A stretch of DNA of 61,807 bases from a virus (IMGVR_UViG_3300018025_000004:1-61807), one strand, 5' to 3'. Positions 1,581-61,807 are shown, counted from the stretch's first letter. The notes: generated by a model from the sequence alone, not told the origin. Numbers and translations: made by a program.

Positions 1581-1609
1581 TTGACCTGCACACCCGTGGA
1601 GGTTACCAT
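1581..1609 (+). promoter_or_regulatory. Sigma70-like promoter candidate (TTGACC-17 nt-TACCAT)
   Basis: The -35 TTGACC lies at 1581-1586, the spacer is exactly 17 nt, and the -10 TACCAT lies at 1604-1609. Confidence 0.35.
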
Positions 1610-1615
1610 GCTCGC

Positions 1616-1707
1616 ACAACATTGGGGAATGTTGAGGCTGATCTCTGTGGACATGGGGAGAAAGCAACCAAGGGCGGTCCTGCCATCGGGGCCGCCCTTG
1701 TGTTTTT
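1616..1707 (+). ncRNA. Candidate ~90-nt small RNA or leader
   Basis: The predicted start is followed immediately by the hairpin CAACATT-GGGG-AATGTTG (1617-1634). The transcript would end at an intrinsic terminator. The alternative is a 57-codon ORF (1608..1781) behind GGAGG. Confidence 0.3.
1670..1707 (+). terminator. Intrinsic terminator candidate
   Basis: Stem AAGGGCGG / CCGCCCTT followed by GTGTTTTTG. Confidence 0.5.
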
Positions 1708-11361: not shown

Positions 11362-14300
11362 ATGGCACAGATCACCGATGTCCAGCAGCCCGCGTTGCCG
11401 GCTGTTGCCAACCTCCCGTCGTTCGCACCACCTCGGGGGTTTGGGCGGGCGTCGTTGGATCAGCTCAATGGTGGTCAACCATCGTTGATTGGTGGCGCAC
11501 TCTCCGCTGGCACACATGAGCTGGGTAGCCAGTTCGGCGGGTTTGTCAGCGCGCTCGGTACGACGCTGGGCATGAACGGCGTCTCTGACTGGGGTCAGCA
11601 GGTTGCGCAGTCGCAGGCAGCGGCTGCGGCGCAGAATGGCCGACCGGACTTGGATGCTGACCCGTGGTCGCCGTCTGGTATGGCTTACGGGCTGGTTAAG
11701 GGCCTGCCGATGTTGACGGGTGTCGCGCTTGCACATCGTCTCGGTGCGAAGCGGCTGGCTCCTGCTCTCGGTGTGTCTGAGGGCGTCGGTGGCACACTCG
11801 GTGCTGGTGCGGCGTTGTATCCCGGCATGGTCGGCAGCAACGTCGAGACTGCGCGCAAAGCCAACGGAGGGGAGCTGACACCGAACGCTGCGGCTGCCTC
11901 GCTGGCTATGGGTGTCCCGGAGGCGGCGATTGGCTCCATTGTGCCGGGTAATGTCGATAAGATGCTCGCGCGCGGTATGGCCGGCGACTGGCTGTCGCGG
12001 CTCGGGAAGGGTGCCGCGATTAACGCTGGTATGGGTGGTGTGCAGGGCGCTGCCAACACCGTGTTCAACCAGTTCCTTGGTGACCAGAGCCGCCCCATCG
12101 CGGATCGGGCGAATGACGTTGTGCAGTCGGCGCTGCAAGGCGCGTTTCAGGGCGGCGTCATCGGTGGCGTCTTCGGTGTTGTGGGTGGTCGGAAGCGTGT
12201 TGCCCCGACCGCGACGGATGACGCCCTGACGAGCGCTGCGACGGTGCCGGGCGCGACGGATGCCGAGCCCGCGAAGACCACTGTTGGCCCTGCTGACGCG
12301 AGCGGTGCTGCGCAGGTGGGCCTCGACCTCCCCGAGCAGCAGACGCCGCAGATGGCGGATCACCCGCTTGCGCCTGAGATGCAAGGCCCGACGATCCCGC
12401 CCGAGATGGTGAATGGCCGGCAGATGTCGCTGTTCACGCCCGACGAAGAGGGTGCGCGGCAGGCCGACATTTTCAAGATGCGCGGCGTGGTGCGTGATGC
12501 GCTTGGCAAGGCTGAGCTGGACCCCAACACCGATACGTCCTTCGTGGATAATCTGAACGCCACCAACACGCCGGAGCTGATTAAGGCCCTACGCGAGCAG
12601 GTAACGCGCTACGACCGCGACAAAGACGGTGCGATGCCTGCGTGGTTCAAAGAGCTTGCCGCTGCGCATGGCGTTGTGGACGAGACGGGCAAGACGCGTA
12701 ACCTCACCGATGAACATGCTGACCTGCTCACGCAGATCGAGACACAGAAGGGTGCCGGGAACGGTACGTATCAGACACTTTTGGAGCGCGCCGCGCAGCG
12801 TAAGGCGGAAGGCAATGACGCTCGGCAGACCGTCCTATTGGATCAAGCAAATACGATCCGCGCGCGAAACGATGAAAAGGTCGCAGCCCTCCAAAAGCGA
12901 GCCGACGAACTAACGCCGCTCATGGACCAGCACGCGCAGGCTGACGCGCTGCCGGATAAGTTCTCGCCGAAGCAGGTGCCTGACACGCTGAGCGACAAAC
13001 CGAAGGCCGCAGCGCTCTATCAGCAGATGGAGCTTTTGCGCGACCACTCGCCTGATCCCAAGATCGCTGAGCGTGCTGCACGGGCGTCTGATTTGCTGCG
13101 GTCGGGGCGGCAGGACCAGATGCGCCGTGCAGCGCAGATTGCGCAGGACTTCGCTGATCGTGTGGCGCGTGAGTGGGGTTACAGCGACAGGGACAAGCCG
13201 GTCGCTCCTGCCGTGGACGAGGACGCTGCCCGGCGAGCCGCTGACGACACTACCCAGCCGGCTCCGGCCCCTGACACGACCGTGGACGAGGACGCTGCCC
13301 GGCGAGCCGCTGACGACACTACCCAGCCGGCTCCGGCCCCTGACACGACCGTGGACGAGGACGCTGCCCGGCGGGTGGCCGCCGAGGCTCCCGAGACGCC
13401 TGCGGAGCGGGAAGCCGCAGTAACTGCGCCCCCGGCCACCCCGGATGCCCAGCCTGTGGTCGCTGCCCCGGAGGGCATCCCGTTCATGGTCACCAAGGCC
13501 ATGCGTAAAACGCTGCTGGAGCGGGGCTATACGGTTGACGACGTGCGCAACATGACGCCTGCGAAGGCGCGGGAGGCGTTGCAAGCTCCCACGGCTCCCA
13601 CAGCTCCCCCGGTTGTGGATAATCCCACCCCGTCGCCCGAAGCGCAGATGAGGGTTCGGGATGAGATTGCCCCGTCGATGTTGGAGGCTCAGCGTAAGGA
13701 GCTTGAGGATCACGTCGCGCGCACGCAGGCGGATCGTGCCACGCGGTTGCAGGCTGAGAGGCAGGCCGCACTTAGCCAGACCGGGGCGTATCAGCCGCCC
13801 AAGAAGAGCATCTCCCTCGGGGGTATCCAGCGGTCGAAGGACGCACTGGCGACCATGGCTGAGCCGGCGGGTCGGACGCAGGCTGACGTGGATGCCGAGC
13901 ACCTGATCTCCAATGGTGCGACCGGCGCGCAGGTGCTCAAGCATATTGAGGACACCACCACCGATCCGAACTTGCGCCGTCTGGCCAAGAAGATGCGGGA
14001 GAGGGGCCTTGACCCCACAATCTCGTATGGCACGCGGGATGAGATTGAGGCGGATGCGCAGGCGACGCAGGGTAAGACCTTCGACGCCACGAACGCGGAC
14101 GCGGCGTATAACGAGACGACGAACCATGTGTGGCTGGCATCGCGTGAGAACACGCACCAGAATATCATGCACGAGATGATGCACTCCGCGACGTGGAAGG
14201 CGATTGAGGCCGGCGGACCCATCGCGAAGCGTATGAACGACCTGTTTGAGCAGGTTAAGCGGTCGGCAGCAGTGCGTCTGGATAAGGCTGCGGGCAAAGT

Positions 14301-17300
14301 GCCGTATGGTCTGACCAACCTGCACGAGTTTGTTGCTGAGGCGTTCACGAACCCGTGGTTCCGTGACACCCTCTCTAAGGTCACGATGCCCGGTGAGACC
14401 AAGACCCTCTGGGGCAAGTTCAAGGATGCGGTTAAGCGGTTGTTCAACCAGCCAGAGAAGACCCGCACGGCGCTCGATGAAATTATGGACATGGGGCAAG
14501 ACCTCATGGACGAGCACCAGAAGATCGACGTGTCGCCGCAAAGTGAGGCGATCATGGCCAAACGCGTTGCGGATGAGCATGAGAAAGTCAGCATAGTAGG
14601 CGCAGGCATCTTCCATCAAGCGCAGGATAGCCTCAGCAAGCTGGCCAACCTCGTCTCAAATCCGAAAGAGATGGGCACGAAGATCAGTGCGTTCGCTGAC
14701 TACAATATGACCCGCACACAGATGATCCGGCGTCATGCGGCTGAGTTTGCGTCCGGCGCAACGCAGCACATGGAGGATGCGTGGGCAGCGCACACGGCCA
14801 TTGGTCAAGCTGCGGCAACGACCGGCTTGCATGTTAAGGTCGCCATCGACGGGATTAAGGATGTTGCGACGCGTGATGCGGCGCTGCGGGATGCGTTTTG
14901 GTCGAGCCAGATCGGGGCGCACCCGTTCAAGACGTTTGCGGAGCAGCCGAACCTCCACAACCGTAAGGATCGGGCGATCATTCAGCCGGAAATCGACCGC
15001 ATCGCGAAGGCGTTCAACGACGTGTACCGCCAGAAGGGCGCGCGTGACGCGATCACGCAGGCGCACGCGGCTGGTGAGGCGCAGAACGCATCGCAGATGA
15101 TGCTGGGGCTGCACGAGTTTATGCGCCGGGAGAAATTCGGTGACTTGATTACCGATGCGGACGTGCACGACCAGTTCGCGAATAATGCCGATGCGCACAC
15201 CCCGGCGACTGCGGCTACGTTCTATAGGGCTGCGCTGGATAAGCAGGTCGCCAACATCAAGCAGTTTGTGGATGCGCAGGAAGGCTCTGTCGCCCATCTG
15301 CCCCAGAACGATAGTGCGCGGCAGGCTGTGACGGCGCAGCTCAAAGACTTGAAGGGTCAGCTCAACGCAATCAGCAGTAACTTGATCACCCACGAGCACT
15401 CGCCGTATATGCCTTCCGGTCGTGAGGGTGAATACGCGGCGGCGTTCACGTTGAAGCTCGGCGACGATGGGCAAATCCACCCGCAGGCGTTGGCGGCGTT
15501 ACAGGACGGGCTTGCTGCGCGCGGCCTGAATGTCGGCATCAATCAGCATGTGGATAACCCGAGTGTGTTTATTCGGGTGGGTACGCTCGACAAAGCGCAG
15601 CAGATTGCCGATCTCGCGCAGGATTTGGGTAAGCGCGGCTTGCTGGACGAAAAGGGCGATGCTCCACTGGCAAAGCGGTTGGATGACGATGCCATGGCGA
15701 GCCGCACGCGGCCTGCGTGGGTGAAGCAGATGATGGACAGTGTGGCGCAGGATACGCGTATTCCCGAGGAGCAGCGGGCCGCGATCCATGACCAGCTTCG
15801 TCAGACGTGGGCTGACATTTTGCCGTCGCGTGACGTGGTGCAGCTCGCCCGCAAAAACGTCCAAGGCTTCTCCACTGACGTGGCGCGGGCGCTGGATCGT
15901 CGTAACAGTGTGTGGGCGAACGGGCTTGCCAATCTCGTGACGCAAGAGCGCAAGAACGTCGCGTTTGGTGAGATGCGGGATGATATTGGCAATCTTCAAC
16001 GGCAGCCCGATGTATCCAAGACGGTCAGCGCGCAGAACTGTCTCAATGAGCTGGCTACGCGTGAAGTTGGCCGTGACTGGCGTCCGCAAACGACAGGGGG
16101 TGATACCTTCCGCTCCGCGCTCCATGCGTGGCAGCTCGGCGTGTCCCCCGCGTATTTTGTGCTGGAGCTGTCGCAGGCCCCCATGTTCGTGCTTCCGGCT
16201 ATGTCTGCGGAGCGGGGTATTGCGAAATCCACTGCTGCGCTGACCAGCAACCTTGCTATGACGATTAAAGTCATGCGCGCTATTTCGAGTGGTCCGCTGG
16301 GCAAGTACGGCGTGTTCACCGCGCAGGGGTTGAAGGACGCGAATATCCCGCCGGCTATCGCTGAGCATCTCCTCAAGTGCAACAATCGTGGCTGGTTTGA
16401 AAACTCAGCCACGCGTGAGCTTGGGATGTCTGCGGACGGTCGCGCACAAACCACCACCCAGAAGGCAATCCACTGGGCGAACTTGTCCGCGCTCTACACC
16501 GAAGTTGCCATGCACGTAAACACGGCTCTGGCCGTGAAATCGCTGCACGATACCAAGCCATTCGCGGAGGGGCTGGATGCCGCGACTGACCGCATCATGG
16601 AGAAGGGTCACTGGAAGTGGGGCGCAGGAGAGAACGCGCGCTCCATGGGCAAGCAGGGTTTTGCCGGCAAAGCGACGCCCTATCTGACGCAGTTCATGGG
16701 CTGGCAGATGAAGGCTCTTGAGACCTATTACCGCGAGCTGCACACTGTGTTCAGCGGCGATGCCTCGCGTGATGCGCGAATACAGTCCGCTAAGTTTATC
16801 GGCGGTCATATGGCTGCGGTTGTGGCGTTCTCCGGCTTGTCCGGTTTGCCCACGACGCCGCTTATGGGTCTGGCGTCGAAGGTCATGAACACGCTGACCG
16901 GGTCGGATCAATACGATTTCGAGCAGAACTATCGTAGTTATCTTACAAGCATGTTCGGCAAGGAGTTCGGTGACGCCATGGCGCGCGGTCTTCCGCATCT
17001 GGCCGGATTTGACATGAGCGACGTGGGTGATGAGGGCTTGGTCCCCGGCGGTCGGTTCCTCGCAGATCAGCGGAAGTGGCAGGATGCTTCCAAAGACGCC
17101 GCGTGGCGGTCGATGGGTGCGGGTATCGGCTTCGCGAGCAACGCTGTTGGCGCGATGCAGGATTGGTCGATGGGTAACCCCGAAGCAGCTCTCCGCAAGT
17201 TGCTGCCGGCCACGCTGCGTAACCCGTATGAAGCGTACATGATGCACGAGCATGGCTACGTCAACAACTCGGGCGTGAAGGCACCGATCCAGCCGACGAG

Positions 17301-17664
17301 CGCGGATGTGTGGAAGAAAGCTCTGGGCCTTGAGCCCGCGAGCATGAAGCAGAATGAGGACTTACGCGATCAGGCGGAACGCACCGAGACCATGCAGCAC
17401 AACATCTCCGGTGCCATTGAGGCGAATATCAAGCGCGCAATATCGTATGGTGATGGCTCCTCGTTGCAGGATGCGATACAGAAGGCGCAGGCGTTCAATC
17501 AGACCCACCCGAATACCCCTATCGACGTGAACAAGGCGGCGGTGGGTGTCCAGATGGAGAACGCACGCGCGATTGGGCTGGGGCTGCCTGCTGGCACCGG
17601 CAAACCGACAGATGCGCGCTTGCGCACACGCCTCGACCCGTATTATATTCCGGGTAAGTCCTAA
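11362..17664 (+). CDS. Giant virion-associated multidomain protein (2100 aa) with an ArdC/zincin-like HExxH motif
   Basis: Single uninterrupted ORF. Gly-rich N-terminus. A 69-bp repeat is present 2.4 times. The motif NIMHEMMHSATW...LHEFVAEAF lies near residues 938-995. Confidence 0.8.
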   Translation: MAQITDVQQPALPAVANLPSFAPPRGFGRASLDQLNGGQPSLIGGALSAGTHELGSQFGGFVSALGTTLGMNGVSDWGQQVAQSQAAAAAQNGRPDLDADPWSPSGMAYGLVKGLPMLTGVALAHRLGAKRLAPALGVSEGVGGTLGAGAALYPGMVGSNVETARKANGGELTPNAAAASLAMGVPEAAIGSIVPGNVDKMLARGMAGDWLSRLGKGAAINAGMGGVQGAANTVFNQFLGDQSRPIADRANDVVQSALQGAFQGGVIGGVFGVVGGRKRVAPTATDDALTSAATVPGATDAEPAKTTVGPADASGAAQVGLDLPEQQTPQMADHPLAPEMQGPTIPPEMVNGRQMSLFTPDEEGARQADIFKMRGVVRDALGKAELDPNTDTSFVDNLNATNTPELIKALREQVTRYDRDKDGAMPAWFKELAAAHGVVDETGKTRNLTDEHADLLTQIETQKGAGNGTYQTLLERAAQRKAEGNDARQTVLLDQANTIRARNDEKVAALQKRADELTPLMDQHAQADALPDKFSPKQVPDTLSDKPKAAALYQQMELLRDHSPDPKIAERAARASDLLRSGRQDQMRRAAQIAQDFADRVAREWGYSDRDKPVAPAVDEDAARRAADDTTQPAPAPDTTVDEDAARRAADDTTQPAPAPDTTVDEDAARRVAAEAPETPAEREAAVTAPPATPDAQPVVAAPEGIPFMVTKAMRKTLLERGYTVDDVRNMTPAKAREALQAPTAPTAPPVVDNPTPSPEAQMRVRDEIAPSMLEAQRKELEDHVARTQADRATRLQAERQAALSQTGAYQPPKKSISLGGIQRSKDALATMAEPAGRTQADVDAEHLISNGATGAQVLKHIEDTTTDPNLRRLAKKMRERGLDPTISYGTRDEIEADAQATQGKTFDATNADAAYNETTNHVWLASRENTHQNIMHEMMHSATWKAIEAGGPIAKRMNDLFEQVKRSAAVRLDKAAGKVPYGLTNLHEFVAEAFTNPWFRDTLSKVTMPGETKTLWGKFKDAVKRLFNQPEKTRTALDEIMDMGQDLMDEHQKIDVSPQSEAIMAKRVADEHEKVSIVGAGIFHQAQDSLSKLANLVSNPKEMGTKISAFADYNMTRTQMIRRHAAEFASGATQHMEDAWAAHTAIGQAAATTGLHVKVAIDGIKDVATRDAALRDAFWSSQIGAHPFKTFAEQPNLHNRKDRAIIQPEIDRIAKAFNDVYRQKGARDAITQAHAAGEAQNASQMMLGLHEFMRREKFGDLITDADVHDQFANNADAHTPATAATFYRAALDKQVANIKQFVDAQEGSVAHLPQNDSARQAVTAQLKDLKGQLNAISSNLITHEHSPYMPSGREGEYAAAFTLKLGDDGQIHPQALAALQDGLAARGLNVGINQHVDNPSVFIRVGTLDKAQQIADLAQDLGKRGLLDEKGDAPLAKRLDDDAMASRTRPAWVKQMMDSVAQDTRIPEEQRAAIHDQLRQTWADILPSRDVVQLARKNVQGFSTDVARALDRRNSVWANGLANLVTQERKNVAFGEMRDDIGNLQRQPDVSKTVSAQNCLNELATREVGRDWRPQTTGGDTFRSALHAWQLGVSPAYFVLELSQAPMFVLPAMSAERGIAKSTAALTSNLAMTIKVMRAISSGPLGKYGVFTAQGLKDANIPPAIAEHLLKCNNRGWFENSATRELGMSADGRAQTTTQKAIHWANLSALYTEVAMHVNTALAVKSLHDTKPFAEGLDAATDRIMEKGHWKWGAGENARSMGKQGFAGKATPYLTQFMGWQMKALETYYRELHTVFSGDASRDARIQSAKFIGGHMAAVVAFSGLSGLPTTPLMGLASKVMNTLTGSDQYDFEQNYRSYLTSMFGKEFGDAMARGLPHLAGFDMSDVGDEGLVPGGRFLADQRKWQDASKDAAWRSMGAGIGFASNAVGAMQDWSMGNPEAALRKLLPATLRNPYEAYMMHEHGYVNNSGVKAPIQPTSADVWKKALGLEPASMKQNEDLRDQAERTETMQHNISGAIEANIKRAISYGDGSSLQDAIQKAQAFNQTHPNTPIDVNKAAVGVQMENARAIGLGLPAGTGKPTDARLRTRLDPYYIPGKS
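13213..13376 (+). repeat. 69-bp in-frame tandem repeat, 2.4 copies (VDEDAARRAADDTTQPAPAPDTT)
   Basis: 13213-13281 and 13282-13350 are identical; a partial third copy follows. Confidence 0.9.
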
Positions 17665-37523: not shown

Positions 37524-38789
37524 TCAATCGTCGTCCCACTCGCCGAGCAGAGCCTCGACATTCTGGGGGGTCGCAACCGGCTTGACGGGCTTGGCCGGCG
37601 CATCCTCATCGTCCTCCACGACGACGGGCTTCTTCTTCTTGACCACGACCGGCGCATCCTCATCGTCCTCCACGACGACGGGCTTCTTCTTCTTGACCAC
37701 GACCGGCGCATCCTCATCGTCCTCCACGACGACGGGCTTCTTCTTCTTGACCACGACCGGCGCGTCTTCGTCATCCTCGACCGGCGCGGGCTTCTTCTTG
37801 GGCGGCAGAACCGGCGCGTCTTCGTCATCCTCGACCGGCGCGGGCTTCTTCTTGGGCGGCAGAACCGGCGCGTCTTCGTCATCCTCGACCGGGGCCTTGG
37901 GCTTCTTCTTGGGCGGCAGAACCGGCGCGTCTTCGTCATCCTCGACCGGGGCCTTGGGCTTCTTCTGCGCCACAACCGGCGCAGCGGCGGGGGCTTCAAG
38001 CACCTTGTGCCCATCCGCGCCTTCCGGCGACCACGTACCGGACAGCAGCTTGAGGACTTCGGGCGACTTCGACAGCTTGGCGACGATGGCGAGATCAGCC
38101 GGCTCCAACCATTTCTCCGGCGAGAAGATGACCTTGGGATAGTCCGTCTTCGGATCGAACTTGAGCTTGGTCACCAGCGCACCAGTGTGCTTGATGCCTT
38201 TGGTGCGCAGGTATTCCGTATAGTTGTCGAACGCGAACCAGCCGGCAGCCTCCAGCTCGGGGGACTGACCATCGTAGATGGACGTGATCGCGAGCTTCAA
38301 GCGCAGCGGCGTGAAGGACAGATCGTTCGACGGGATGACAGCCACCATACGGTGCTGCGAACAGGCCGTAACCGCCTTGTTGTTGTCCGACACCTTGGAG
38401 CCCTTCTGCGACCACGGACAGGTGTCGCACTTCTTCGACGGCGCATCGACCACCGAGGGGTGCGGCGTAATGCCATCGTCCGACCAGCACGCCGGCTTGC
38501 CGGGCTTGTCCGGGTCATACGCACCCTCGTAATAGGCGCGGCCACGACGGGGCGCATAGCCAAGGATGATGGCGCGGAAGATCGCCGCCGGAACCAGATC
38601 GCCGTCAGCGTCGCGCTTCTCCAGAATGGTCTTCTCGCCATTCAGGTTGATCGCCCACTTTTTGCCACCGTAGGTCAGCGACGGTACGGACTGGCGGTCA
38701 GCGATATTGCTGCCCTCGTCCGAGTTGAAGAAGTCCTGAATGTGCGCCGGGAGTGCCGGTGCTTTGAAGATAGCGAGATCATTTGCCAT
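37524..38789 (-). CDS. Putative ssDNA-binding protein with a repeat linker and an acidic tip
   Basis: Cys cluster CWSDDG..CDTCPWSQKGS. Seven charge-alternating repeats of 18-19 aa. The C-terminus ends ..LLGEWDDD. Confidence 0.45.
   Translation of the reverse strand: MANDLAIFKAPALPAHIQDFFNSDEGSNIADRQSVPSLTYGGKKWAINLNGEKTILEKRDADGDLVPAAIFRAIILGYAPRRGRAYYEGAYDPDKPGKPACWSDDGITPHPSVVDAPSKKCDTCPWSQKGSKVSDNNKAVTACSQHRMVAVIPSNDLSFTPLRLKLAITSIYDGQSPELEAAGWFAFDNYTEYLRTKGIKHTGALVTKLKFDPKTDYPKVIFSPEKWLEPADLAIVAKLSKSPEVLKLLSGTWSPEGADGHKVLEAPAAAPVVAQKKPKAPVEDDEDAPVLPPKKKPKAPVEDDEDAPVLPPKKKPAPVEDDEDAPVLPPKKKPAPVEDDEDAPVVVKKKKPVVVEDDEDAPVVVKKKKPVVVEDDEDAPVVVKKKKPVVVEDDEDAPAKPVKPVATPQNVEALLGEWDDD
37597..37980 (-). 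repeat. Seven tandem 54/57-bp in-frame repeats (three subtypes)
   Basis: Unit starts: A x3 at 37597, 37651, 37705; B x2 at 37759, 37813; C x2 at 37867, 37924. Near-exact at nucleotide level. Confidence 0.9.
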
Positions 38790-40811: not shown

Positions 40812-41237
40812 TTATTTACCCGTAATCAGCAGTGTCGGTTCGGTGAGGGTGCGAGCAATGTTCAGCAGCTCAGCGCCGACCGCGTCAGGCAACTTCTCGC
40901 CCATGGAGGTGTGCACCGTTGCGGTCTCGAACAGCGCCAGCCATTTGGCGAACAGCCCGATGGTCTTTTCGTCCACCACGAACCCGAAACCATCCTCAGC
41001 GTAAATTGACTGGAGATACTGTTTCTGGTTTATGGTCGGTTTGTTTCCGCCGAACTTGGCTTCGACAGCGATGAAGACGCCACGCTTGAGCGCGTTGATG
41101 TCGGACACACCGACCTTGCCGAAGCCGTTGGCCGGCGGCATCCACCAAAACGCACCCCACGCATCCAGCAGCTTCTTGATGTCGTCCTTGACGTGGCGTT
41201 CAGACCCATAGGTCGTGCGTAGCTTGTATGGTTTCAT
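40812..41237 (-). CDS. VRR-NUC domain nuclease
   Basis: GVSDINAL...FIAVEAKFG (D..ExK of the PD-(D/E)XK fold). The pairing with an SNF2 helicase is typical. Confidence 0.7.
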   Translation of the reverse strand: MKPYKLRTTYGSERHVKDDIKKLLDAWGAFWWMPPANGFGKVGVSDINALKRGVFIAVEAKFGGNKPTINQKQYLQSIYAEDGFGFVVDEKTIGLFAKWLALFETATVHTSMGEKLPDAVGAELLNIARTLTEPTLLITGK

Positions 41238-41569
41238 GCTTGATCCCTCCTAATTAACCCACAACCAATCTCGTTCGAGATTGCATCGACAGCCGCTCTA
41301 TACGCGTCATAGACTGGCTCCATACGTTCGACAAACTTAGGCATGAGTAGGTGCCAGTCGGCCGCGTCGAAGTCATCCTGTTCCGGGGTGAACATCGCCG
41401 GAGGACGTTTCGGTATTGTGTCCCAATAGACGAATGTGAATAATCCCGGCTCGTCACGCGTTGCCTTTCGCACGTAGTGACCAACTTCGTCGCAGTGCGT
41501 TCGCCATGCAATCCGTGTGATATACACACCATTCTTGACGAGACGTTCTAGTGCGTCATCCCATGTCAT
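41234..41569 (-). CDS. DUF2829 / Tad2-like domain protein
   Basis: MTWDDALERLVKNGVYITRIAW ... FTPEQDDFDAADWHLL matches the remembered DUF2829 pattern. It carries a ~35-aa C-terminal extension. Confidence 0.5.
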   Translation of the reverse strand: MTWDDALERLVKNGVYITRIAWRTHCDEVGHYVRKATRDEPGLFTFVYWDTIPKRPPAMFTPEQDDFDAADWHLLMPKFVERMEPVYDAYRAAVDAISNEIGCGLIRRDQA

Positions 41570-42265: not shown

Positions 42266-43096
42266 TCAGCCGCCCATGGCCTCAACCAGTTTGTCGATGC
42301 GAGCCTGCAACGCCGGCTCCAGATCGTTCTCGTACAGGGCCGTGCTGGCGAGGTTCAGGACGAGCTTCGCTTCATCCCGGCTCCACTTGGCTGCGACCGG
42401 GGCCGGACGGGGCGTAAGGGCCGCCTGACCCTTCGGCTCGTGCAGGATCGAGTGCTTCTTGGTGGCCTTCGTCTTGCCCTCAGCCGCCGCCGTGGCCACC
42501 GCGTCCTTGAGGATCGTCGTGGCTTCCGTGGCGTGCTCGCGGACAGTCTCAGCAGCGAAGGTCGCCGACACACGCCCCTCCCGAACGAGCTGGTGGACCT
42601 CAGCCGGGGCCGACTGGAAGTCGAGGAGCTGCGCCACGCACGACTGGCTCTTGCCGATCCGCCGCGCCACGTCGGTGATGGACAGACCGAAGGTGAGGGC
42701 GCGCTTCACGAGCTGCCCCTCCTCCAGCATGGTGAGGGCCTTGCCAGAGTTGGACGTGCTCTGCCGCAGCAGCCGGTCCACGTCGTTGATGCCGCGTCCC
42801 TCCGGCACGCAGGGGACGGTCGGGATTTCAAAGCCCTCGGCGATCAGCTCCTTGACCGCAGTCAGGCGGCAGTGCCCAGCGCCGACGAAGACCTCGTCAC
42901 CGACCGAGAAAATCTCCAGCGGGTGGGAGGGCAAGAACCCCACCTCGCGGATGGAGGCCTTGAGATAATCAATGTGCACGCGAGTGTCCGGCGAGGTCAG
43001 ATCGCGTGCGTTGAGGCCCGGCTGGATGTCAATTTCCAACGGGTTAAAATTCAGGAGAGCCGAACGGCTCACCGCCATATCTTTTAAGCTGGCCAT
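42266..43096 (-). CDS. ParB-like nuclease-domain / HTH protein
   Basis: ParB N-domain GAGHCRLTA and HTH ITDVARRIGKSQSCVAQL. No parA partner seen. Confidence 0.65.
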   Translation of the reverse strand: MASLKDMAVSRSALLNFNPLEIDIQPGLNARDLTSPDTRVHIDYLKASIREVGFLPSHPLEIFSVGDEVFVGAGHCRLTAVKELIAEGFEIPTVPCVPEGRGINDVDRLLRQSTSNSGKALTMLEEGQLVKRALTFGLSITDVARRIGKSQSCVAQLLDFQSAPAEVHQLVREGRVSATFAAETVREHATEATTILKDAVATAAAEGKTKATKKHSILHEPKGQAALTPRPAPVAAKWSRDEAKLVLNLASTALYENDLEPALQARIDKLVEAMGG

Positions 43097-43119
43097 GGTT
43101 GCACCTTGGGGATTGAGGT

Positions 43120-43665
43120 TTAGTCGAGGGTGATGCTGAGCGCGCACGCCACCTTGTGCAGGTGCAGCGCTTGAGTGATCGCATCGTCCACGGCGTTGTG
43201 GAACACGCCGGAACGCTCCAGTTTGAGGGTGGGGGCGAGGCTCTTGACCGTGCGGTAGCAGCGGTCATGCCAGAACTTCCACGGTGTTTCGAGACCCAGA
43301 CGCTCGTAGGCGCGGCGCAGGATCACGTTGTCGAAGGTCGAGCCGTTGCCCCAGAGGGGCAGGCTCTTGTCGCCGAACCACATGGCGAGACCCTCCAGCG
43401 CCGACACAATGTCAACGCGGTCGGAGCCGAGCAGCGACGTGCGAGCCTCGTTACGCTCGGCGTCCATCCACCAGAGGACAGTGGCGGGGTCCATGACGCC
43501 GCCGAACTTGTGGGCCGACGCCGGGTCGATGGCGACGTAGAACTTGTCGCGGATGGGGTTCTCGTTGGCCGGGGTGTTGGGGTCGAACTTCACCGCTCCA
43601 ATGGAGAGGATCAAGGCGTCGTTGTTGGTGCCGAATGTTTCGATGTCAACCATAACATGGTTCAT
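43120..43665 (-). CDS. DnaQ-like 3'-5' exonuclease
   Basis: ExoI VDIETFG, ExoII GNGSTFDN, ExoIII HNAVDDA. The start at 43665 lies just downstream of an operator palindrome. Confidence 0.8.
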   Translation of the reverse strand: MNHVMVDIETFGTNNDALILSIGAVKFDPNTPANENPIRDKFYVAIDPASAHKFGGVMDPATVLWWMDAERNEARTSLLGSDRVDIVSALEGLAMWFGDKSLPLWGNGSTFDNVILRRAYERLGLETPWKFWHDRCYRTVKSLAPTLKLERSGVFHNAVDDAITQALHLHKVACALSITLD

Positions 43666-55046: not shown

Positions 55047-55070
55047 GTGGGTTACTCCTGTTGGTTAGTG

Positions 55071-55146
55071 TTTGGGACCACGTATGACCGGCTGCGCCGG
55101 TCATTCTGGTTTGGGACAGTATGTCCCAAACAATCATGTCCCAAAC
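55071..55146. promoter_or_regulatory. 75-bp composite operator element, copy a
   Basis: Order of parts: TTTGGGACC; palindrome ATGACCGGCTGCGCCGGTCAT (55084-55104); TTTGGGACAGTATGTCCCAAA (55110-55130); half-site TGTCCCAAA (55137-55145). Confidence 0.75.
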
Positions 55147-55166
55147 CATTAGTGGTTAGGCGTACA

Positions 55167-56497: not shown

Positions 56498-56815
56498 ATG
56501 GTTGACGAACCGAATGTCGAAGTCGATGCGGCCGTGATCGAAATTACCATCCGGGTCGCTGGCGTCAATGGGCACCAGCCGCTGACGCCGCAGAACGCCG
56601 CCGCCGTGGGCGTTGACCCTGCGGCGGCTCAGCCGGGCAGCGCCTCGGCCAGCGACCAGACCACGGCCGCCGTGGGCGTTGACCCTGCGGCGGCTCAGCC
56701 GGGCAGCGCCTCGGCCAGCGACCAGACCACGGCCACCACGACCGTCCAGCCCAGCGCCGGCCAGAACGCCGCCCAGAACCCCGCCCAGAACCCCGCCCAG
56801 AACCCGGCGGTGTAG
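56498..56815 (+). CDS. Possible plus-strand repeat protein, 105 aa
   Basis: GAGAGGA 9 nt before the ATG. Two 66-bp repeats and three AQNP repeats. Its 3' 121 nt are antisense to the transposase-like ORF. The two frames share wobble positions, so codon bias cannot decide between them. Confidence 0.35.
   Translation: MVDEPNVEVDAAVIEITIRVAGVNGHQPLTPQNAAAVGVDPAAAQPGSASASDQTTAAVGVDPAAAQPGSASASDQTTATTTVQPSAGQNAAQNPAQNPAQNPAV
56600..56805. repeat. 66-bp tandem repeat x2 (56600-56731) and 12-bp GCCCAGAACCCC x3 (56769-56805)
   Basis: Exact nucleotide repeats. Confidence 0.9.
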
Positions 56816-57636
56816 AGGTGCAAGTCTTGACGGCTGACCTGATGGTGTGCGCCGTCAAGACTGCGCTTGCTATTGCCGAAAAAGCCCTCAACGGTGTTCG
56901 TCGTCACGTTTCGGCCAGAACGATAGTCGTAATAGCCATACTCATCGGCAGAATGGTTCACCGTCGAGTGTGATGCAAAATCCTTGCCCGCCTTGGTGTA
57001 GAGCGGGGACTCGTCGGTATTGAGGTGAGCCTCCTCCGACACATGATGCTTTAAAAGTGTGCTGATGGTTTTCCCGTTGACGCGCTCGGCAACCGTAGAC
57101 CGCACATCACCGCCACGTTGTACCAGAGACACCACAGCAATCTTGTTGCCGGTATAGCCACGCCCCTTACCCTTTGCCTTTCCGCCGATATAGGTTTCGT
57201 CGGCCTCGACCTCACCAGTCAGCAACCCGGCAGGATTCGCATCCTTGAGGGCGAACCGGATGCGGTGACAGAGAAAGAGCGCCGTGCGGTAGGAGCCAAG
57301 CTCAAGCTGGCGCTGCAACTGGAGCGCCGAAACCTGCGTCTTGCTGGCACACATCATATAGAACGCGATCAGCCACTTATTCAGCGGGATTTTCGACGCC
57401 TCCATGACGGTGCCGACGGTTACGGTGAAGGTGTCAGTGCATTCGCCACATTTGTAGAGGCCGGGCCGCGTGCCCGTCTTGGCGTTTGCGGAGCGCGCGT
57501 AAATTTTCTCGCAGCTGCCGCAGTGCGGGCAGACCGGGCCATTCGGCCAGCGCACACGCTCGAAATAGGCGCGCGCGGCCTCCTCGGTGGAGAACCGACG
57601 CATGATTTCCATAAGGGTTAGATCAGGATAGATCAT
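56695..57636 (-). mobile_element. IS1595/ISXO2-family transposase-like gene, C-terminus replaced; no IS ends identified
   Basis: Zn-ribbon CPHCGS..CGEC. DDE contexts EADETYIGG, LNTDES, TNTVEGFF. Family similarity stops after ..DLHLY and continues as GFWAGFWAGFW. Start at ATG 57636, behind AAAGAGAG. Confidence 0.7.
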
Positions 57637-57718: not shown

Positions 57719-57820
57719 GTCTTACGCGGTGGCCGCGCATCGTGTCGAGACCACGTTGCAAGTCATGGAGAAGTCTCTTGAGTATGCTGTACCATACCAC
57801 ACCCTAGGGGTGATGTCAAG

Positions 57821-58132: not shown

Positions 58133-58213
58133 CGCTTTCTCCTTTGTCACGTTCTCTTTTGTCACGTTCGCCAAACGCCCTTGGGCGTTATGGCTCGGTG
58201 ATGTTCGGTGATG
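58133..58213 (-). promoter_or_regulatory. Hairpin leader module (core 58174-58189) plus two GGTGATGTT(C) units
   Basis: GTCACGTTC.. x2, then CGCCAAACGCCCTTGGGCGTTATGGCTCGGTGATGTTCGGTGATGTT. Confidence 0.7.
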
Positions 58214-58288
58214 TTTGGGACCACGTATGGCCGGCTGCGTCGGTCATTCTGGTTTGGGACAGCATGTCCCGAACAATCATGTCCCAAA
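58214..58288. promoter_or_regulatory. 75-bp composite operator element, copy b
   Basis: Same order and orientation as copy a. The inner palindrome ATGGCCGGCTGCGTCGGTCAT (58227-58247) carries two G.T positions. The dyad lies at 58253-58273. Confidence 0.75.
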
Positions 58289-58326
58289 GATCGCGGCGTA
58301 GTAGTTACTTTCTATTTCCAGCGCGG

Positions 58327-58515
58327 TCATCGGTTGCGCTCGCGGTCAGCCTCAGACGCAGTGCGCGCACGCCGCACACGTTCCCGCCGTGTCAGTTCGG
58401 GGTGGTTATTGTTCAGGCTTGCGCAGACCGTAGGCGCGGTCAACGCTATCGACATGAGAGAGCGTACATTCGTGAGGGCGCGCAAGTCTCCCAACTCCAG
58501 CATGTAAGTCATCAT
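58327..58515 (-). CDS. Early small basic protein, 62 aa (tentative)
   Basis: ATGATG behind GGGAG. Arg-rich C-terminus. The alternative is a 49-codon ORF (58406..58555) that starts right after AAAGAGAGCG. Confidence 0.35.
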   Translation of the reverse strand: MMTYMLELGDLRALTNVRSLMSIALTAPTVCASLNNNHPELTRRERVRRARTASEADRERNR

Positions 58516-58555
58516 CCAAGCTCCCAATTGCAAGTGCTATCGTCTCAAAGCTCAT

Positions 58556-58675
58556 CGCTCTCTTTGATCACGTTCTCTTTTGTCACGTTCGCCAAACGCC
58601 CTTGGGCGTTATGGCTCGGTGATGTTCGGTGATGTTCGGTGATGTTCGGTGATGTTCGGGACACCATGTCCCAAA
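58556..58675 (-). promoter_or_regulatory. Hairpin leader module (core 58595-58610), four 10-bp GGTGATGTTC units and the operator TTCGGGACACCATGTCCCAAA (58655-58675)
   Basis: Exact repeat family. The operator abuts the stop codon of the 232-aa gene. Confidence 0.7.
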
Positions 58676-58677
58676 GG

Positions 58678-59376
58678 TTAGCCAAACAGCCGCGCGAGGA
58701 TCGAGGCGATGACCCCACGCTTGGGCTGCGCGTGCGCCCCACCCATCTCGCCATAGCCGGCCTTGAAGTTCTTGGCGGGGTGGGCGATGAAGTGATCTTG
58801 GATAGTGGGCGCGCGTGAGGGTGATACACCCTGCGCACCATAGGTGGTGAGGCCAAGCAACGAGGCGTTGGAGGCCTCGTTAAAGAACACGTCGGCCACG
58901 ACAGCCTTCTCTTTTTCATCCACGCCGGGGAAGCCGCACGTGTCATCGAGGGGCTGGTCATGGTTACGGTCATGGTTACGGTCAAGAAACTGAGCGTAGA
59001 TGGCCTTGGAAATCGCCATCATGGCCTGCTCGTGCTCAGCGTAGGCACGCTCGTGCCGCGCCAGCCGGGTCTGGAGGTCAGCCGCCGAGCCGGCAGGTAG
59101 GGAGACCCCATAGGCAGGCAGGGAGGGCTGGAGGGGCTCGCCCTCGTCAAACAGGAGCCAGTCCGCTCCGAGGCTCACGGCCAGCGCGATGCAGGCGTTC
59201 AGGTCGTGCTGGAGTAACTGCGATCCCTCATGGACGACCGCCACCATCCAGCCAGTTTCACCGTGCTGGTAGGTCTGCGGAACCGTCACGTCGTTGCAGT
59301 CCAGCGCCAGTTTGGTGAGCGGGGTCAGGTGGCGAGTGGATAGGGCGAGGATGCTCTCAAGGGGTGCGTTGGTCAT
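58678..59376 (-). CDS. Early protein, 232 aa
   Basis: ATG 59376 behind GTGACAAAAGAGAGAATAAAC. No family confirmed. Confidence 0.6.
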   Translation of the reverse strand: MTNAPLESILALSTRHLTPLTKLALDCNDVTVPQTYQHGETGWMVAVVHEGSQLLQHDLNACIALAVSLGADWLLFDEGEPLQPSLPAYGVSLPAGSAADLQTRLARHERAYAEHEQAMMAISKAIYAQFLDRNHDRNHDQPLDDTCGFPGVDEKEKAVVADVFFNEASNASLLGLTTYGAQGVSPSRAPTIQDHFIAHPAKNFKAGYGEMGGAHAQPKRGVIASILARLFG

Positions 59377-59609
59377 GTTTATTCTCTCTTTTGTCACGTT
59401 CTCTTTTGTCACGTTCTCTTTTGTCACGTTCGCCAAACGCCCTTGGGCGTTATGGCTCGGTGATGTTCGGTGATGTTCGGTGATGTTCGGTGATGTTCGG
59501 TGATGTTCTCTTTTGTCACGTTCGCCAAACGCCCTTGGGCGTTATGGCTCGGTGACGCGCGCAAGAGCGCAGGCCTGAGGCCGAGCACGAGCAAGCCACG
59601 AGGATGGGG
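59377..59609 (-). promoter_or_regulatory. Two tandem leader modules (cores 59436-59451, 59528-59543), GTCACGTTCTCTTTT x3, TGATGTTCGG x5 (59461-59508) and the 60-bp outer element (59551-59609)
   Basis: All are exact or near-exact copies of sequences at 58.1-58.7 kb, 60.4-60.7 kb and 1.35-1.47 kb. Confidence 0.75.
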
Positions 59610-59617
59610 CGCAGTAG

Positions 59618-60382
59618 TTATGGGCAGATTATATCGTCGTCGTCATCGTCAGCGTGGATAACCACACCCGAGAACTTCAAGGCTTTGGTTTGGGACGCCT
59701 TGTCCCAAAGCTCGAAGCGGGTCCAGCCGCCACCAGCCCCAAGGGCGGGCTCATGGCGTGGCCGCCAGAAGGCAGTGCCGAGGCCGTACTCGGTGTCGGT
59801 CTCCAGCAGGCGCAGCACATGGTCCTCGGGCTGCTCACCCATGTCGGCAAGGAAGTCTTTGAACTTGTGCCAACGTGGGTGCAGGTAACGCGGCGGGTTA
59901 AAGCGCCGGCTCTCGTCCGCGCCCATACACCGCATCTTGATGAATGTGTATGTGCGGTAAGTCTTGGTCTGGTTCTCGCCAGCGTGGCCGTGGCTCACGT
60001 TGCCATGCAGTGTCATGTCCATGTCAGCCGGCGTGAGTGCAGGTCGCGCTCTGCTTGCCTCAAGGCGGCGCTGCGCAGCGTGCAACACCGGAGGCTCATG
60101 TGTTACTGGCTCAACCAATGGCTGGAGCTTGCGACCGAAGGACGTGGCGCTATGCTCTTTGATCTGGTCAATCTTCACTCTGGAAGTTTCCAGCGCTGTT
60201 GTCCTTGCTTCACGTATTATGCGTTGGGCAGTTTCGCGCTGCTCTCGCTTTGCCTCATGGCGCGCAGCGATCTTGGCCGCGCCCTCGGGCGTATAGACAC
60301 GCGTCTTGTATGTCTTGCGTTTGGGTGGGTGACGTTTGGCGAACGTCCCGTCAGGCTGCTTGACCCAGATCGTCTCGGACAT
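59618..60382 (-). CDS. First early protein, 254 aa, with an RC-x-n-W..F..F..DMG-type putative DNA-binding domain and a poly-Asp tail
   Basis: KTYRTYTFIKMRCMG....RYLHPRWHKFKDFLADMGEQPEDHVL pattern. ATG 60382 behind GTGACAAGAGAGAGAGAGCG. Confidence 0.6.
   Translation of the reverse strand: MSETIWVKQPDGTFAKRHPPKRKTYKTRVYTPEGAAKIAARHEAKREQRETAQRIIREARTTALETSRVKIDQIKEHSATSFGRKLQPLVEPVTHEPPVLHAAQRRLEASRARPALTPADMDMTLHGNVSHGHAGENQTKTYRTYTFIKMRCMGADESRRFNPPRYLHPRWHKFKDFLADMGEQPEDHVLRLLETDTEYGLGTAFWRPRHEPALGAGGGWTRFELWDKASQTKALKFSGVVIHADDDDDDIICP
59689..59709. promoter_or_regulatory. Intragenic operator palindrome TTTGGGACGCCTTGTCCCAAA
   Basis: Lies inside the 254-aa CDS (codons L-W-D-K-A-S-Q-T). 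Confidence 0.6.
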
Positions 60383-60738
60383 GATGTTCGCTCTCTCTCT
60401 CTTGTCACGTTCGCCAAACGCCCTTGGGCGTTATGGCTCGGTGATGTTCGGGACACCATGTCCCAAAGGTTAGCCGAACGCCCTTGGGCGTTATGGCTCG
60501 GTGATGTTCGGTGATGTTCGCTCTTTTGTCACGTTCGCCAAACGCCCTTGGGCGTTATGGCTCGGTGATGTTCGGGACACGATTGTTCGGGACATGCTGT
60601 CCCAAACCAGAATGGCCGGCAGCGCCGGCCATACGTGGTCCCAAAGGTTAGCCGAACGCCCTTGGGCGTTATGGCTCGGTGATGCGCGCAAGAGCGCAGG
60701 CCTGAGGCCGAGCACGAGCAAGCCACGAGGATGTGGGG
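60383..60738 (-). promoter_or_regulatory. Array of four hairpin cores (60417, 60477, 60541, 60655), operator 60447-60467, inverted composite element c (60571-60645) and outer 60-bp element (60679-60738)
   Basis: Densest repeat cluster in the window. No ORF with a plausible start. Confidence 0.75.
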
Positions 60739-60815
60739 ACAGACCCCGACTTACCTATGTACTATACACCACCCCCAAGGCGTTGTCAAGGGGGTCACCC
60801 TCGTGGCTTGCGCGT

Positions 60816-60869
60816 GTCACTTACAGCCGGCGTCGTGGTGTGTGATTGGAAAAACCGTCGTGGTGTTTG
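60816..60869. repeat. Left arm of a 54-bp inverted repeat
   Basis: 48 of 54 positions match the reverse complement of 61681-61734. Confidence 0.85.
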
Positions 60870-61147
60870 TGTTTTGAAAATGTCCTCGCTACATAAGGAC
60901 TTAGACGTGCTCGTGATGGTTATGGTCGAGTGCTGTTTTATGTAGATGCGCACCCCCAAGTGGTTGCAATCACACACTAATTTTTTTACGAATTTACACT
61001 TGTGGTTACATATGGATTCGCAATGGTCGGGTCGCGGATTTCTGTAAGTGATTGAATTGATTTGGTTTATTCGGTTTATGGCAGAAATGTCCTCACTTTC
61101 AAGTATACACCCCCCTATAGGGCTTTTTTATGCGGGTCACACACACA

Positions 61148-61290
61148 CCACGACGTTAATTCTTTGTATCGTCCACGACGTTAATTCTTTGTATCGTCCA
61201 CGACGTTAATTCTTTGTATCGTCCACGACGTTAATTCTTTGTATCGTCCACGACGTTAATTCTTTGTATCGTCCACGACGTTAATTCTTT
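61148..61290 (+). repeat. 25-bp iteron CCACGACGTTAATTCTTTGTATCGT, 5.7 tandem copies
   Basis: Exact copies start at 61148, 61173, 61198, 61223 and 61248; a partial copy starts at 61273. Confidence 0.95.
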
Positions 61291-61308
61291 GGGACACGGT
61301 GGTCCAAA
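61288..61308. promoter_or_regulatory. Operator-like dyad TTTGGGACACGGTGGTCCAAA fused to the last iteron
   Basis: Matches the reverse complement of the 195-215 site apart from one position. The CGACGTTAATTC flank is in direct orientation at both sites. Confidence 0.6.
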
Positions 61309-61680
61309 CACGTATTACGAGCGTGGTGTGTGTTGATGGTTACGTTACCAGCAGCTTCTCACGTGGAAAAAAAAGCTGAATTACCCGACCAAAAGTGGAT
61401 TTTTTGCCAAAAACGCGTTGCCCCAGGTGGTTAAACAGCACGAACAACAAAATTTTGTATATCTCTCTCTCCCTAAAAGACTGATATATATATATATAAC
61501 AACTAATACGAACAGGATTTTTTGTTTTCCCCCAAAAACACTGGGGAAACCGCCTACATAGATAACCTGAAGTTTTGGTCGTGTTTTGTGTTTTTTATGT
61601 CCTTTTGGGGGGTCAAAAAACACGTTTTGGCGGCGTTACATAGGTAATTAAAATATCGCGCGTCGTGGACGTTGTGAAAT

Positions 61681-61734
61681 CAAACACCACGACAGTTTTT
61701 CCAATCACGTATTACGACGCCGGCTGTAAGTGAC
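61681..61734. repeat. Right arm of the 54-bp inverted repeat
   Basis: See 60816-60869. It overlaps the terminal 79-bp unit family. Confidence 0.85.
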
Positions 61735-61807
61735 TTAGCGCGGCTCGTCGTGGTGTGTGTATCCACCACGACAGTTTTTCCAATCACGTATTACGACGCC
61801 GGCTGTA
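61686..61807. repeat. Terminal 79-bp unit copies (partial 61686-61740, then 61741-61807 = nt 1-67)
   Basis: Exact identity with the left end of the window. Confidence 0.9.

Follow-up and report, generated by a model that had tools for sequence, protein, structure and literature searches.

Repeated hairpin cassettes with putative ribosome-binding sites in a 61.8-kb phage genome: a lineage-specific family proposed to act in transcribed leaders

The early region of phage T7 contains intercistronic RNase III hairpins of about 20 bp or more, and conserved processing sites are present in the early mRNA of SP82/SPO1. The REP/BIME elements of Enterobacteria and Pseudomonas are chromosomal, occur in both orientations, are mobilised by RAYT and stabilise the upstream mRNA. 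In T4-type phages, the promoter-early stem-loops (PeSLs) are mobile regulatory cassettes that contain a strong sigma70 promoter and a stem-loop acting as a terminator (Arbiol et al. 2010, PMC2839356; Comeau et al. 2014, PMC4122927). Here we describe a hairpin module that recurs at 58133-60738 and in the opposite arm of IMGVR_UViG_3300018025_000004:1-61807. This DNA of 61,807 nucleotides (the window) is a complete 61.8-kb phage genome with two divergent arms. The module is tentatively considered to be a transcribed leader or intercistronic cassette made of a hairpin plus a ribosome-binding site (RBS), and not a promoter. In this reading, which stands somewhat short of an even chance in our judgement, the cassette is lineage-specific and probably has a role in mRNA stability or processing.

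The T7 early region resembles this locus in that similar gene-sense hairpins lie between early genes, strong host-type promoters stand at the genome end, and the action would be exerted on RNA; the window hairpin is shorter, about 14 bp in three tiers, and several copies stand in series without genes between them. Like REP/BIME sequences, the copies are imperfect extragenic palindromes of 30-40 nt that are transcribed, often clustered and prone to recombination. The window family differs from them in being phage-borne, single-orientation and RBS-linked, in having no RAYT, and in a core that is absent from reference genomes. PeSLs, too, are short repeated intergenic stem-loop cassettes ending in a Shine-Dalgarno (SD) sequence and a start codon, and are concentrated among small accessory early genes. 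However, the window cassette has neither promoter hexamers nor a terminator tail, and its copies are far more uniform and occur in two interchangeable types. By analogy, the cassette would be functionally akin to T7 early intercistronic hairpins or REP elements and PeSL-like in its evolutionary behaviour. It is best placed among the repeated regulatory or leader cassettes already known from phages, rather than set up as a new type of promoter.

The 16-nt core AACGCCCAAGGGCGTT gave 21 strand-matches in the window at three or fewer mismatches against 0.59 expected, and the 50-nt module gave seven matches at one mismatch or fewer against none expected. A covariance model, built from all cassette variants including those of relatives, found exactly 12 copies in the window (35-52 bits, E <= 3e-8; next best 15.9 bits), at the positions named by the original prediction, and none in the 33-57 kb early region or in the late region. 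All 12 lie on the sense strand of the local transcription unit, and the 30 significant matches in relatives are likewise all in gene sense. The relatives compared were about 97% identical in structural genes (L003, L036-L042; the right arm of this 97% lineage is represented by L048 and L049), 93% (L043), 84% (L044), 64-65% (L045-L047) and 58-70% (L004 and others). The closest isolate is Pseudomonas phage Rollin (TerL identity 42%, syntenic).

In gene sense, the main type of unit (HP1) consists of one to five copies of GAACATCACC, the hairpin GAGCCAT-AACGCCC-AA-GGGCGTT-TGGC, and one to three copies of GAACGTGACAAAAGA. Eight HP1 cores are identical within the window. The tandem 10-bp units noticed at the outset are real, although the GGTGATGTTC arrays hold one to five copies (2.1-5.2 by Tandem Repeats Finder) and not two to five; the 15-bp arrays hold one to three (2.1-3.1 by the same program).

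On the minus strand, four copies stand in series before gene A. The first hairpin of this early leader is an HPb copy (60639-60683, 35.3 bits), in which the core is followed by CGGCTAACC and an operator, without a 15-bp unit; relative to L048, this core is a clean 26-nt extra segment after TCACC. The second is an HPa copy (60525-60569, 51.5 bits) with a 10-bp unit, the hairpin and a 15-bp unit. The third, again HPb and recognised by the covariance model (60461-60505), is preceded by two 10-bp units, and both HPb copies, having no 15-nt unit, run into an operator palindrome. In the fourth (HPa, 60401-60445), the 15-bp unit and a GAGAGAGAG tract reach the ATG of gene A at 60382. Four further HPa copies lie downstream on the same strand. 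The copy at 59512-59556 is directly 3' of the second 60-bp element described below. The copy at 59420-59464 has five 10-bp units (59508-59459) and three 15-bp units (59431-59387) before the gene B ATG at 59376, and that at 58579-58623 has four 10-bp units (58657-58618) and two 15-bp units (58590-58561) before the ATG at 58555 of a 49-aa open reading frame (ORF). The copy at 58158-58202 has two units of each kind, the last ending in AAGGAG, before the gene D ATG at 58132.

On the plus strand of the left arm, an HPa copy (1419-1463) is directly 3' of a 60-bp element and has no gene next to it. The terS cassette (1741-1785) precedes the ATG at 1801 and carries the compensatory stem variant ACCGCCC/GGGCGGT. 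The copy at 2331-2375, before the terL ATG at 2395, had been taken for a diverged copy but belongs to a distinct type, HP2, composed of CGCGCGAG, the hairpin AACGCCTTGAAGGCGTT and GTCGAGCAAGG; a 16-nt repeat in five copies precedes it (2258-2338, Tandem Repeats Finder). A partial cassette on the minus strand (389-433; hairpin AGCGCCC/GGGCGTT plus one 15-bp unit) lies directly after the stop of the gene at 426-1046 (-), in its 3' untranslated region (UTR), and is followed by a terminator-like hairpin at about 345-385. This copy, listed at 405 in the original prediction, has no gene downstream, and the statement that the module is always co-oriented with a downstream gene therefore holds for the family as a whole but not here. 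Antisense pairing of this copy with the terS leader was considered and rejected, since both are sense copies on their own transcripts. Five copies, namely the first three of the early leader and those at 59512-59556 and 1419-1463, are not adjacent to a start codon; what comes next is a module, an operator or non-coding DNA.

Directly before the ATGs at 60382, 59376, 58555, 58132 and 1801 stands the last 15-nt unit, with AAAGAGAG or AAGGAG at its end. Judged from its sequence, this last repeat is the RBS of the five genes; most other genes have AGGAG/GGAG before the start. Four of these starts had been recognised earlier, and the one at 58555, in the same AGCG-ATG context, had been missed. The distance from hairpin to AUG is variable (20-55 nt). 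It should be mentioned that a TTG in the 3' flank of the hairpin (59436-59377 and 58174-58133, minus strand) opens a MANVTKENVTKE... ORF through the 15-nt (5-codon) arrays, and that public gene calls make gene B longer (249 aa) by starting it upstream of the ATG adopted here (232 aa). These TTG-initiated MANVTKE ORFs are in frame with genes B and D, only two of the five cases, which is the level of chance; they were rejected, and the upstream extension of gene B is probably spurious.

When one unit is taken as RNA, it is predicted to fold into a hairpin of three tiers (dG -19.9 kcal/mol, z = -5), with a helix of about 14 bp interrupted by an internal loop and a bulge. The outer tier, UCAC/GUGA, would be formed by the last 10-nt unit with the first 15-nt unit; the middle tier is GCCA/UGGC with a bulged U, and the inner tier AACGCC/GGCGUU is closed by the loop CAAG. 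Folding of the whole leader was uninformative, as the near-palindromic copies pair with one another.

The pairing is kept while the sequence changes. Twelve distinct cassette variants were aligned with MAFFT, an N standing in the loop. Pairing in their 7-bp inner stem amounts to 97.6%, and both sides change in four of its seven pairs: pair 2 is A-U, C-G or U-A, pair 7 is C-G or U-A, and pairs 5 and 6 are C-G or G-C. The covariation score was 0.392, compared with 0.168 +/- 0.037 in shuffles (none of 500 reached 0.392) and at most 0.113 in controls with a slid register. By eye, the two sides of the middle stem likewise change together (GCCA/UGGC, GAC/GUC, GCA/UGC). Four wobble cells, arising from three independent substitutions, all read G.U in the gene-sense RNA; on the antisense strand they would be A.C. 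The loops vary among CAAG, CUUG, UGA and CGAG. The orthologous terS copies of L036-L043 carry stem variants other than that of the window: AATGCCC/GGGCGTT and ACTGCCC/GGGCGTT are found in relatives, ACCGCCC/GGGCGGT in the window, and the loop is CGAG in L043. In L044, flanks as in the window enclose the unrelated stem ACCGGG-CGAG-CCCGGT. Pairing is also restored by compensation, as when ATCGCCC/GGGCGTT changes to GGGCGAT, and in ACCGCCC/GGGCGGT. Taken as a whole, the covariation statistics are suggestive. Since the pairing seems to be selected and not the sequence of stem or loop, the hairpin would be a structure-only RNA element.

The search of relatives with a covariance model, which the original prediction had proposed, finds cassettes only in the clade with TerS identity of at least 84%, and no cassette in Rollin, L004-L031 or L045-L047 (TerS identity 65% or less). 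Within the 97% lineage, HP2, in the form CGCGCGAG-N3-hairpin-GTCGAGCAAGGAAACATAAG, stands before the orthologues of genes A and B at the exact positions of the window HP1 modules, with the promoter, the 60-bp elements and the genes staying in place; in the window, HP2 occurs once only, before terL. Between the two types, only CGAG, a hairpin and CGAR-C are conserved. Between its terS and terL, the same lineage carries a further ORF, of 25 aa, with an HP2 copy on either side, and the terL copy of L036 looks like a recombinant of left-arm and right-arm forms, with a T.T mismatch. As paralogues are identical within a genome and orthologous positions differ, concerted evolution or replacement of cassettes is indicated. 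PeSLs likewise show indels and replacements at the cassettes between phages more than 95% identical, and the same is found here: the block 1350-1470, the copy at 405 (missing in L036 and L038) and the HPb core are absent in 97% relatives, and HP1 is exchanged for HP2.

The module core, exact or degenerate, was not found in IMG/VR, JGI metagenome contigs or 185,579 reference genomes, and a megablast search of 50,697 phage records with the right arm gave nothing. In IMG/VR, the HP1 flank pattern gave two chance matches within a coding region, and the HP2 flank pattern was too loose, with chance single matches only. Rfam gave no match at gathering thresholds, and only chance sub-threshold ones in both arms. 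The repeat family is real and previously undescribed; it is confined to one sub-lineage, and neither Rfam nor the public collections searched contain it.

A genome-wide scan gave only two strong intergenic sigma70 matches, both in gene sense in the right arm. P_E1 (60761-60789, -) is a near-consensus sigma70 sequence, TTGACA-17-TATAGT (11/12), and is the predicted driver of the early arm. P_E2 (57791-57819, -) reads TTGACA-17-TG-n-TATGGT (10/12 plus TG) with three operator half-site repeats downstream of it; it is the predicted driver of gene E (ATG 57636), without a hairpin cassette. P_E1 is about 30 nt upstream of the outermost 60-bp element. From this position, the four-hairpin stretch before gene A is the leader, about 370 nt long, of a host-type promoter. 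The -10 sequence of P_E1 in relatives is TATGGT (L048/L049), TATAGT (L046) or TATACT (L004), at about 97%, 64% and 58% TerS identity. The early leader of L004 contains only the promoter, an operator palindrome, the SD and the first gene, which means that the cassette and the 60-bp element are additions of the sub-lineage of the window.

Promoter scans found no sigma70 hexamer pair within or spanning the module. The only match overlapping it, GTGACA-16-CATCAT (60408-60381), places its -10 over the start codon of gene A, and the hexamers beside the 16-nt hairpin (AGCCAT / TGGCGA) are unlike the consensus. The earlier remark that no -35/-10 pair is present is therefore correct inside the module but overlooked P_E1. 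The original prediction had also held that a plain sigma70 promoter inside the outer 60-bp element, with the hairpin dispensable in reporter assays, would speak against a special role of the hairpin; the promoter found comes close to this, being placed beside the element and not inside it. Geometries for sigma54, ECF-sigma and class II activators were compared by eye with the module and the 60-bp element, and none fits; a GG-N9-GC found in that element misses the spacing of sigma54 by one base. Among about 40 proteins screened against Pfam, PHROG, NCBIfam and PDB, none belonged recognisably to an RNA polymerase, sigma, Q or N family, in agreement with the earlier statement that no phage RNA polymerase is recognisable; for the N family, proteins are too divergent for a homology test.

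The late arm has its own control unit at 1581-1707 (+), in which a short leader connects a sigma70-like promoter, TTGACC-17-TACCAT (1581-1609), to a strong intrinsic terminator (stem of 14 bp at 1669-1700, plus a T-run); the terS cassette comes next. The unit is conserved in L036-L042, L044 (370-500), L046 (4250-4375) and L047 (738-855). Across the family, it has the form TTGACC/TTGCAC-17-TACCAT/TATAGT/TATGGT with a leader of about 75-90 nt, the terminator loop keeps GCCATCGGG, and terS lies 30-100 nt past the terminator. The layout resembles the PR'-tR' of lambda, where antitermination is of Q type, although no Q-like protein was identified here; alternatively, it might be a small RNA gene. 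A small ORF at 1608-1781 was rejected, as its ATG and SD are not conserved in L044 and there read as the -10 TATAGT. The terminator scan that detects 1669-1700 flags none of the cassettes in the same genome and finds no intrinsic terminators 3' of the early-arm cassettes. The tail after the hairpin is UUUGGCGAAC in HP1 and GUCGAGC in HP2, neither being a U-rich tract.

The 60-bp element (E60), reported earlier at 1350-1414, 59551-59609 and 60679-60738, is present at all three places, each time directly 5' of a cassette hairpin. The first copy (60684-60738, -) begins about 16 nt after the predicted transcript start of P_E1 and consists of a conserved CTCGTGGCTTGC followed by an imperfect covarying hairpin. 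The second (59557-59609, -) is just 3' of the gene A stop, a position also occupied in L048. The third (1350-1414, +) has an internal 7-nt duplication and belongs to the block missing from 97% relatives. E60 folds as an imperfect hairpin in which two pairs covary between two lineages. A boxA-like CGCTCTT is found only in E60, where 18 nt separate it from the hairpin downstream; L048 has CCGGGCTGG in its place. At 60796-60816 (+), just upstream of the P_E1 -35, the E60 start recurs as a partial inverted copy (CCCTCGTGGCTTGCGCGTG), which means that P_E1 is bracketed by 21-nt inverted repeats; this copy is not conserved in L048.

The following model is proposed. Host RNA polymerase would start at the sigma70 sites, in the early arm at P_E1 and P_E2 and in the late arm at the promoter-terminator unit (1581-1707). 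Transcripts would run through the cassettes, each of which would fold into the three-tier hairpin on the RNA, and the single-stranded purine tract 3' of it (AAAGAGAG or AAGGAG) would serve as the RBS of the next gene. The hairpin might form a barrier, or mark a limit of processing, and in this way shield the 5' end of the following cistron, the 3' end of the preceding one, or both, so that the small early genes, terS and terL would receive a standard, insulated translation start. Action as RNA is favoured by the gene sense, the supply of an RBS, the covariation, the G.U pairs seen only in sense, the variable distance to the AUG and the freely changing stems and loops. Among the functions offered by the original prediction, an RNA processing or stability leader is thus the one the evidence favours, and both the action on RNA and the specific role are inferred from the sequences. 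Since relatives differ at the cassettes by insertion, deletion, duplication and type replacement, the cassettes would double as recombination joints for accessory early genes.

Several points weigh against this model. The G.U argument involves three independent substitutions only (p about 0.125), and the shuffle statistics overstate independence because the variants come from few lineages; a DNA site resembling a perfect palindrome would also tolerate symmetric changes. A helix of about 14 bp is short for a classical RNase III site, and no RNase E-type AU-rich site is evident at the cassette. Five copies are away from start codons and four stand in series in one leader, and such serial copies exceed the needs of a simple stabiliser with one hairpin per cistron. 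The 10-bp tandem arrays, with up to five copies, have no obvious role in RNA.

A binding site for a phage regulator, either an RNA hairpin for an N-like antiterminator or for a translational repressor that turns the cassette-bearing genes off jointly, or a DNA palindrome for a dimeric repressor, seems rather unlikely, although many identical copies lie in the early control region, interleaved with operator palindromes, and the first early protein is Arg/Lys-rich at its N-terminus. The nut site of lambda is composed of boxA and boxB and is present in two copies, the CGCUCUUUA-like boxA being a few nucleotides upstream of a boxB with a conserved loop. The put site of HK022 consists of two adjacent stem-loops of the nascent RNA just downstream of the promoter, which act in cis on the polymerase. 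The layout in the window is similar in that hairpin elements lie shortly downstream of early promoters, E60 and the hairpin always forming an adjacent pair of stem-loops, with the boxA-like motif upstream of the hairpin, and the strong terminator of the late leader makes antitermination plausible in this phage. However, there are 12 copies instead of two, the boxA-like motif is lost in the 97% relative, the loops differ and the stems are replaceable. E60 plus hairpin has no sequence or Rfam similarity to the put element. No N protein tied to the element was identified (with the limit on homology given above), and the early-arm cassettes have no intrinsic terminators after them. The spread of 20-55 nt from hairpin to AUG is poor for a steric translational operator, and the C-terminal domain of gene A also occurs in the cassette-free L046. 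The nut/put-like antitermination site of the original prediction is thus weakened. The least probable explanation is attenuation, with the hairpins as weak terminators or pause sites, or the 10-nt arrays as Rho loading sites, and expression falling stepwise along the early operon. The GC-rich stem is followed by UUUGG, and the 10-nt arrays at 59459-59508 and 58618-58657 (-), with 40% C, 10% G and a YC dinucleotide every 10 nt, look like an idealised rut site for Rho loading within an untranslated spacer. In a reporter, efficient termination was seen with PeSL stem-loops that lack classical tails (PMC2839356). Against this, there are only three U residues and the middle stem takes them up in the predicted fold, HP2 has no U-run at all, and the modules escape a scan that flags genuine terminators in the same genome.

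An unrecognised promoter type, used by host polymerase with a phage factor or by a phage polymerase, for instance within the 2100-aa virion protein, that needs an extruded DNA hairpin as the virion polymerase of N4 does, is very doubtful. Repeated, oriented copies immediately upstream of several genes are the classic signature of phage promoters, and a 2100-aa ORF and many early ORFs without detectable homologues leave room for a novel polymerase beyond the reach of homology. The N4 hairpin promoter is used by a virion-packaged polymerase and its hairpin, with conserved bases in stem and loop, keeps a fixed spacing to the start site. In the window family, by contrast, stems and loops vary at orthologous positions, HP1 and HP2 sharing little at the same positions, and no RNA polymerase family was found among the large ORFs; the HExxH motif and hydrophobic C-terminal segments of the 2100-aa protein are typical of ejection proteins, with no polymerase motif recognised. 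One copy lies in a 3' UTR, the terS-terL cassette is dispensable in relatives, and conserved sigma70 promoters account for both arms. Close relatives without the cassette before the same genes are hard to reconcile with an essential promoter. The unusual or hairpin-dependent promoter suggested originally is therefore not upheld: there are no hexamers, no polymerase or sigma factor was recognised, P_E1 is conserved, and relatives have another cassette or none. A selfish or neutral palindromic repeat (REP- or MITE-like), which would spread next to ...CACC through insertion or gene conversion, be tolerated in spacers and provide only a usable RBS, is unlikely. It would agree with a lineage-specific family whose copies are near-identical within the genome, with the clean 26-nt HPb segment after TCACC, with two further copies absent from 97% relatives, with the recombinant-looking terL variant of L036 and with a genome generally prone to tandem repeats. 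The HPb segment and the L036 variant still leave room for a selfish component. But the strict gene sense in the window and relatives, together with the compensatory pairing, points to selection on the transcript. There is no Y1/RAYT-type transposase, the sole transposase-like gene being of the IS1595 DDE type, nor are there terminal inverted repeats or target duplications, and the absence of the exact core from the 185,579 reference genomes argues against a host REP. A further reading is distinctly unlikely: a portable hairpin-plus-RBS "UTR insulator", cut or end-protected by a dedicated phage or host ribonuclease, with its core of about 26 nt (always 3' of ...CACC) spreading through phage genomes as a small mobile palindrome. 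If it were true, the small early genes would be expressed from standardised processed mRNA, as with engineered Csy4 or RiboJ insulators.

The two arms are organised as follows. Structural genes are on the plus strand (terS 1801, terL 2395, portal 4209, on to about 33.6 kb), and early and replication genes on the minus strand, from 60382 down to 33780. Products of the early arm include a DUF927 primase-helicase, a family-A DNA polymerase, an SNF2 helicase, a ThyX-like protein, a dCTP deaminase-like protein, an AAA ATPase, a ParB/KorB-like protein and an IS1595-like protein. Between the arms lies about 1.9 kb of repeat-rich non-coding DNA (60740-61807 plus 1-425). This stretch, a candidate for the replication origin or for packaging, contains a 25-bp repeat in 5.8 copies at 61148-61291 (about two copies in L032), an (AT)7 tract, many CCACGACG motifs and direct repeats of 79 bp. 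A contig from another sample, L032, matches at 100% identity and spans the end-start junction of the window, so that the "terminal" position is an assembly permutation and the region is not the physical end assumed before; other assemblies have the end repeat of the window in their interior. The same phage was also assembled independently from other samples, with identical architecture at 100% identity, and the cassette architecture is therefore not an assembly artefact.

The whole genome is unusually rich in tandem repeats. The 2100-aa ORF of the structural arm (11362-17664, +), with its HExxH motif and hydrophobic C-terminal segments, has an in-frame 69-nt repeat in 2.4 copies at 13211-13373, is conserved in Rollin (2184 aa) and had no match in Pfam, PHROG or PDB; it probably encodes an ejection or internal virion protein. 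Long in-frame tandem repeats of 54/108 nt occur at 37595-37982 (-) within a 421-aa early gene. Gene E (56695-57636, -), with its own sigma70 promoter and operators, encodes a protein with an IS1595/ISXO2-like DDE transposase domain and appears to be a resident phage gene (PHROG 25593); its 3' part contains a 66-nt repeat in two copies and a 12-nt repeat in four (56600-56805). A MITE mobilised by this gene was rejected for want of terminal inverted repeats or target duplications.

About 14 sites of an operator-like palindrome, TTTGGGAC-N5-GTCCCAAA, each of 19-21 bp, are spread over the early arm and the non-coding region, at 196, 282, 1079, 1186, 43692, 51801, 55111, 57699, 58254, 58656, 59690, 60448, 60587 and 61289. 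Every relative keeps the design with the fifth base changed (TTTGCGAC, TTTGTGAC, TTTGAGAC; AAGTGAGAC in L046), and the left-arm sites already differ in 97% relatives (TTGAGAC against TTGGGCC). This divergence looks like a fast-switching specificity of regulator and operator, possibly immunity-like. A 293-aa protein with ParB-HTH/KorB-like domains (42266-43147, -) is a candidate binder of these palindromes. KorB is a multi-site global repressor on plasmid RK2, and the non-coding region of Rollin has TTTAGCGG... repeats that resemble the KorB operator. A 79-nt composite element with 90% complementary arms occurs in both orientations, at 58214-58292 (+), 60567-60645 (-) and about 55070-55150 (+); it contains a GC-rich 9-bp hairpin, ATGGCCGGC..GCCGGCCAT and three operator half-sites. 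The copy at 60632-60612 resembles a terminator when read in gene sense and is not present in the 97% relative.

A Tad2-like (Thoeris anti-defence) domain protein is encoded at 41234-41569 (-), and gene B (58678-59376, -) encodes a DUF5983 protein. These two proteins suggest that the cassette-flanked early genes are accessories for host takeover or anti-defence, which is probably the nature of the accessory early genes joined by the cassettes. For annotation, a repeated oriented motif before phage genes need not be a promoter. Since two cassette types stand before the same A and B orthologues in genomes that are about 97% identical, these phages offer a clean natural test of a structure-only hairpin in a 5' UTR, and the near-consensus promoter, covarying hairpin and purine RBS might be reused as expression modules. 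If the leader and intercistronic reading is true, expression in this phage would be set by one host promoter followed by a string of interchangeable hairpin-plus-RBS cassettes, and the same cassettes would reshuffle its early operons.

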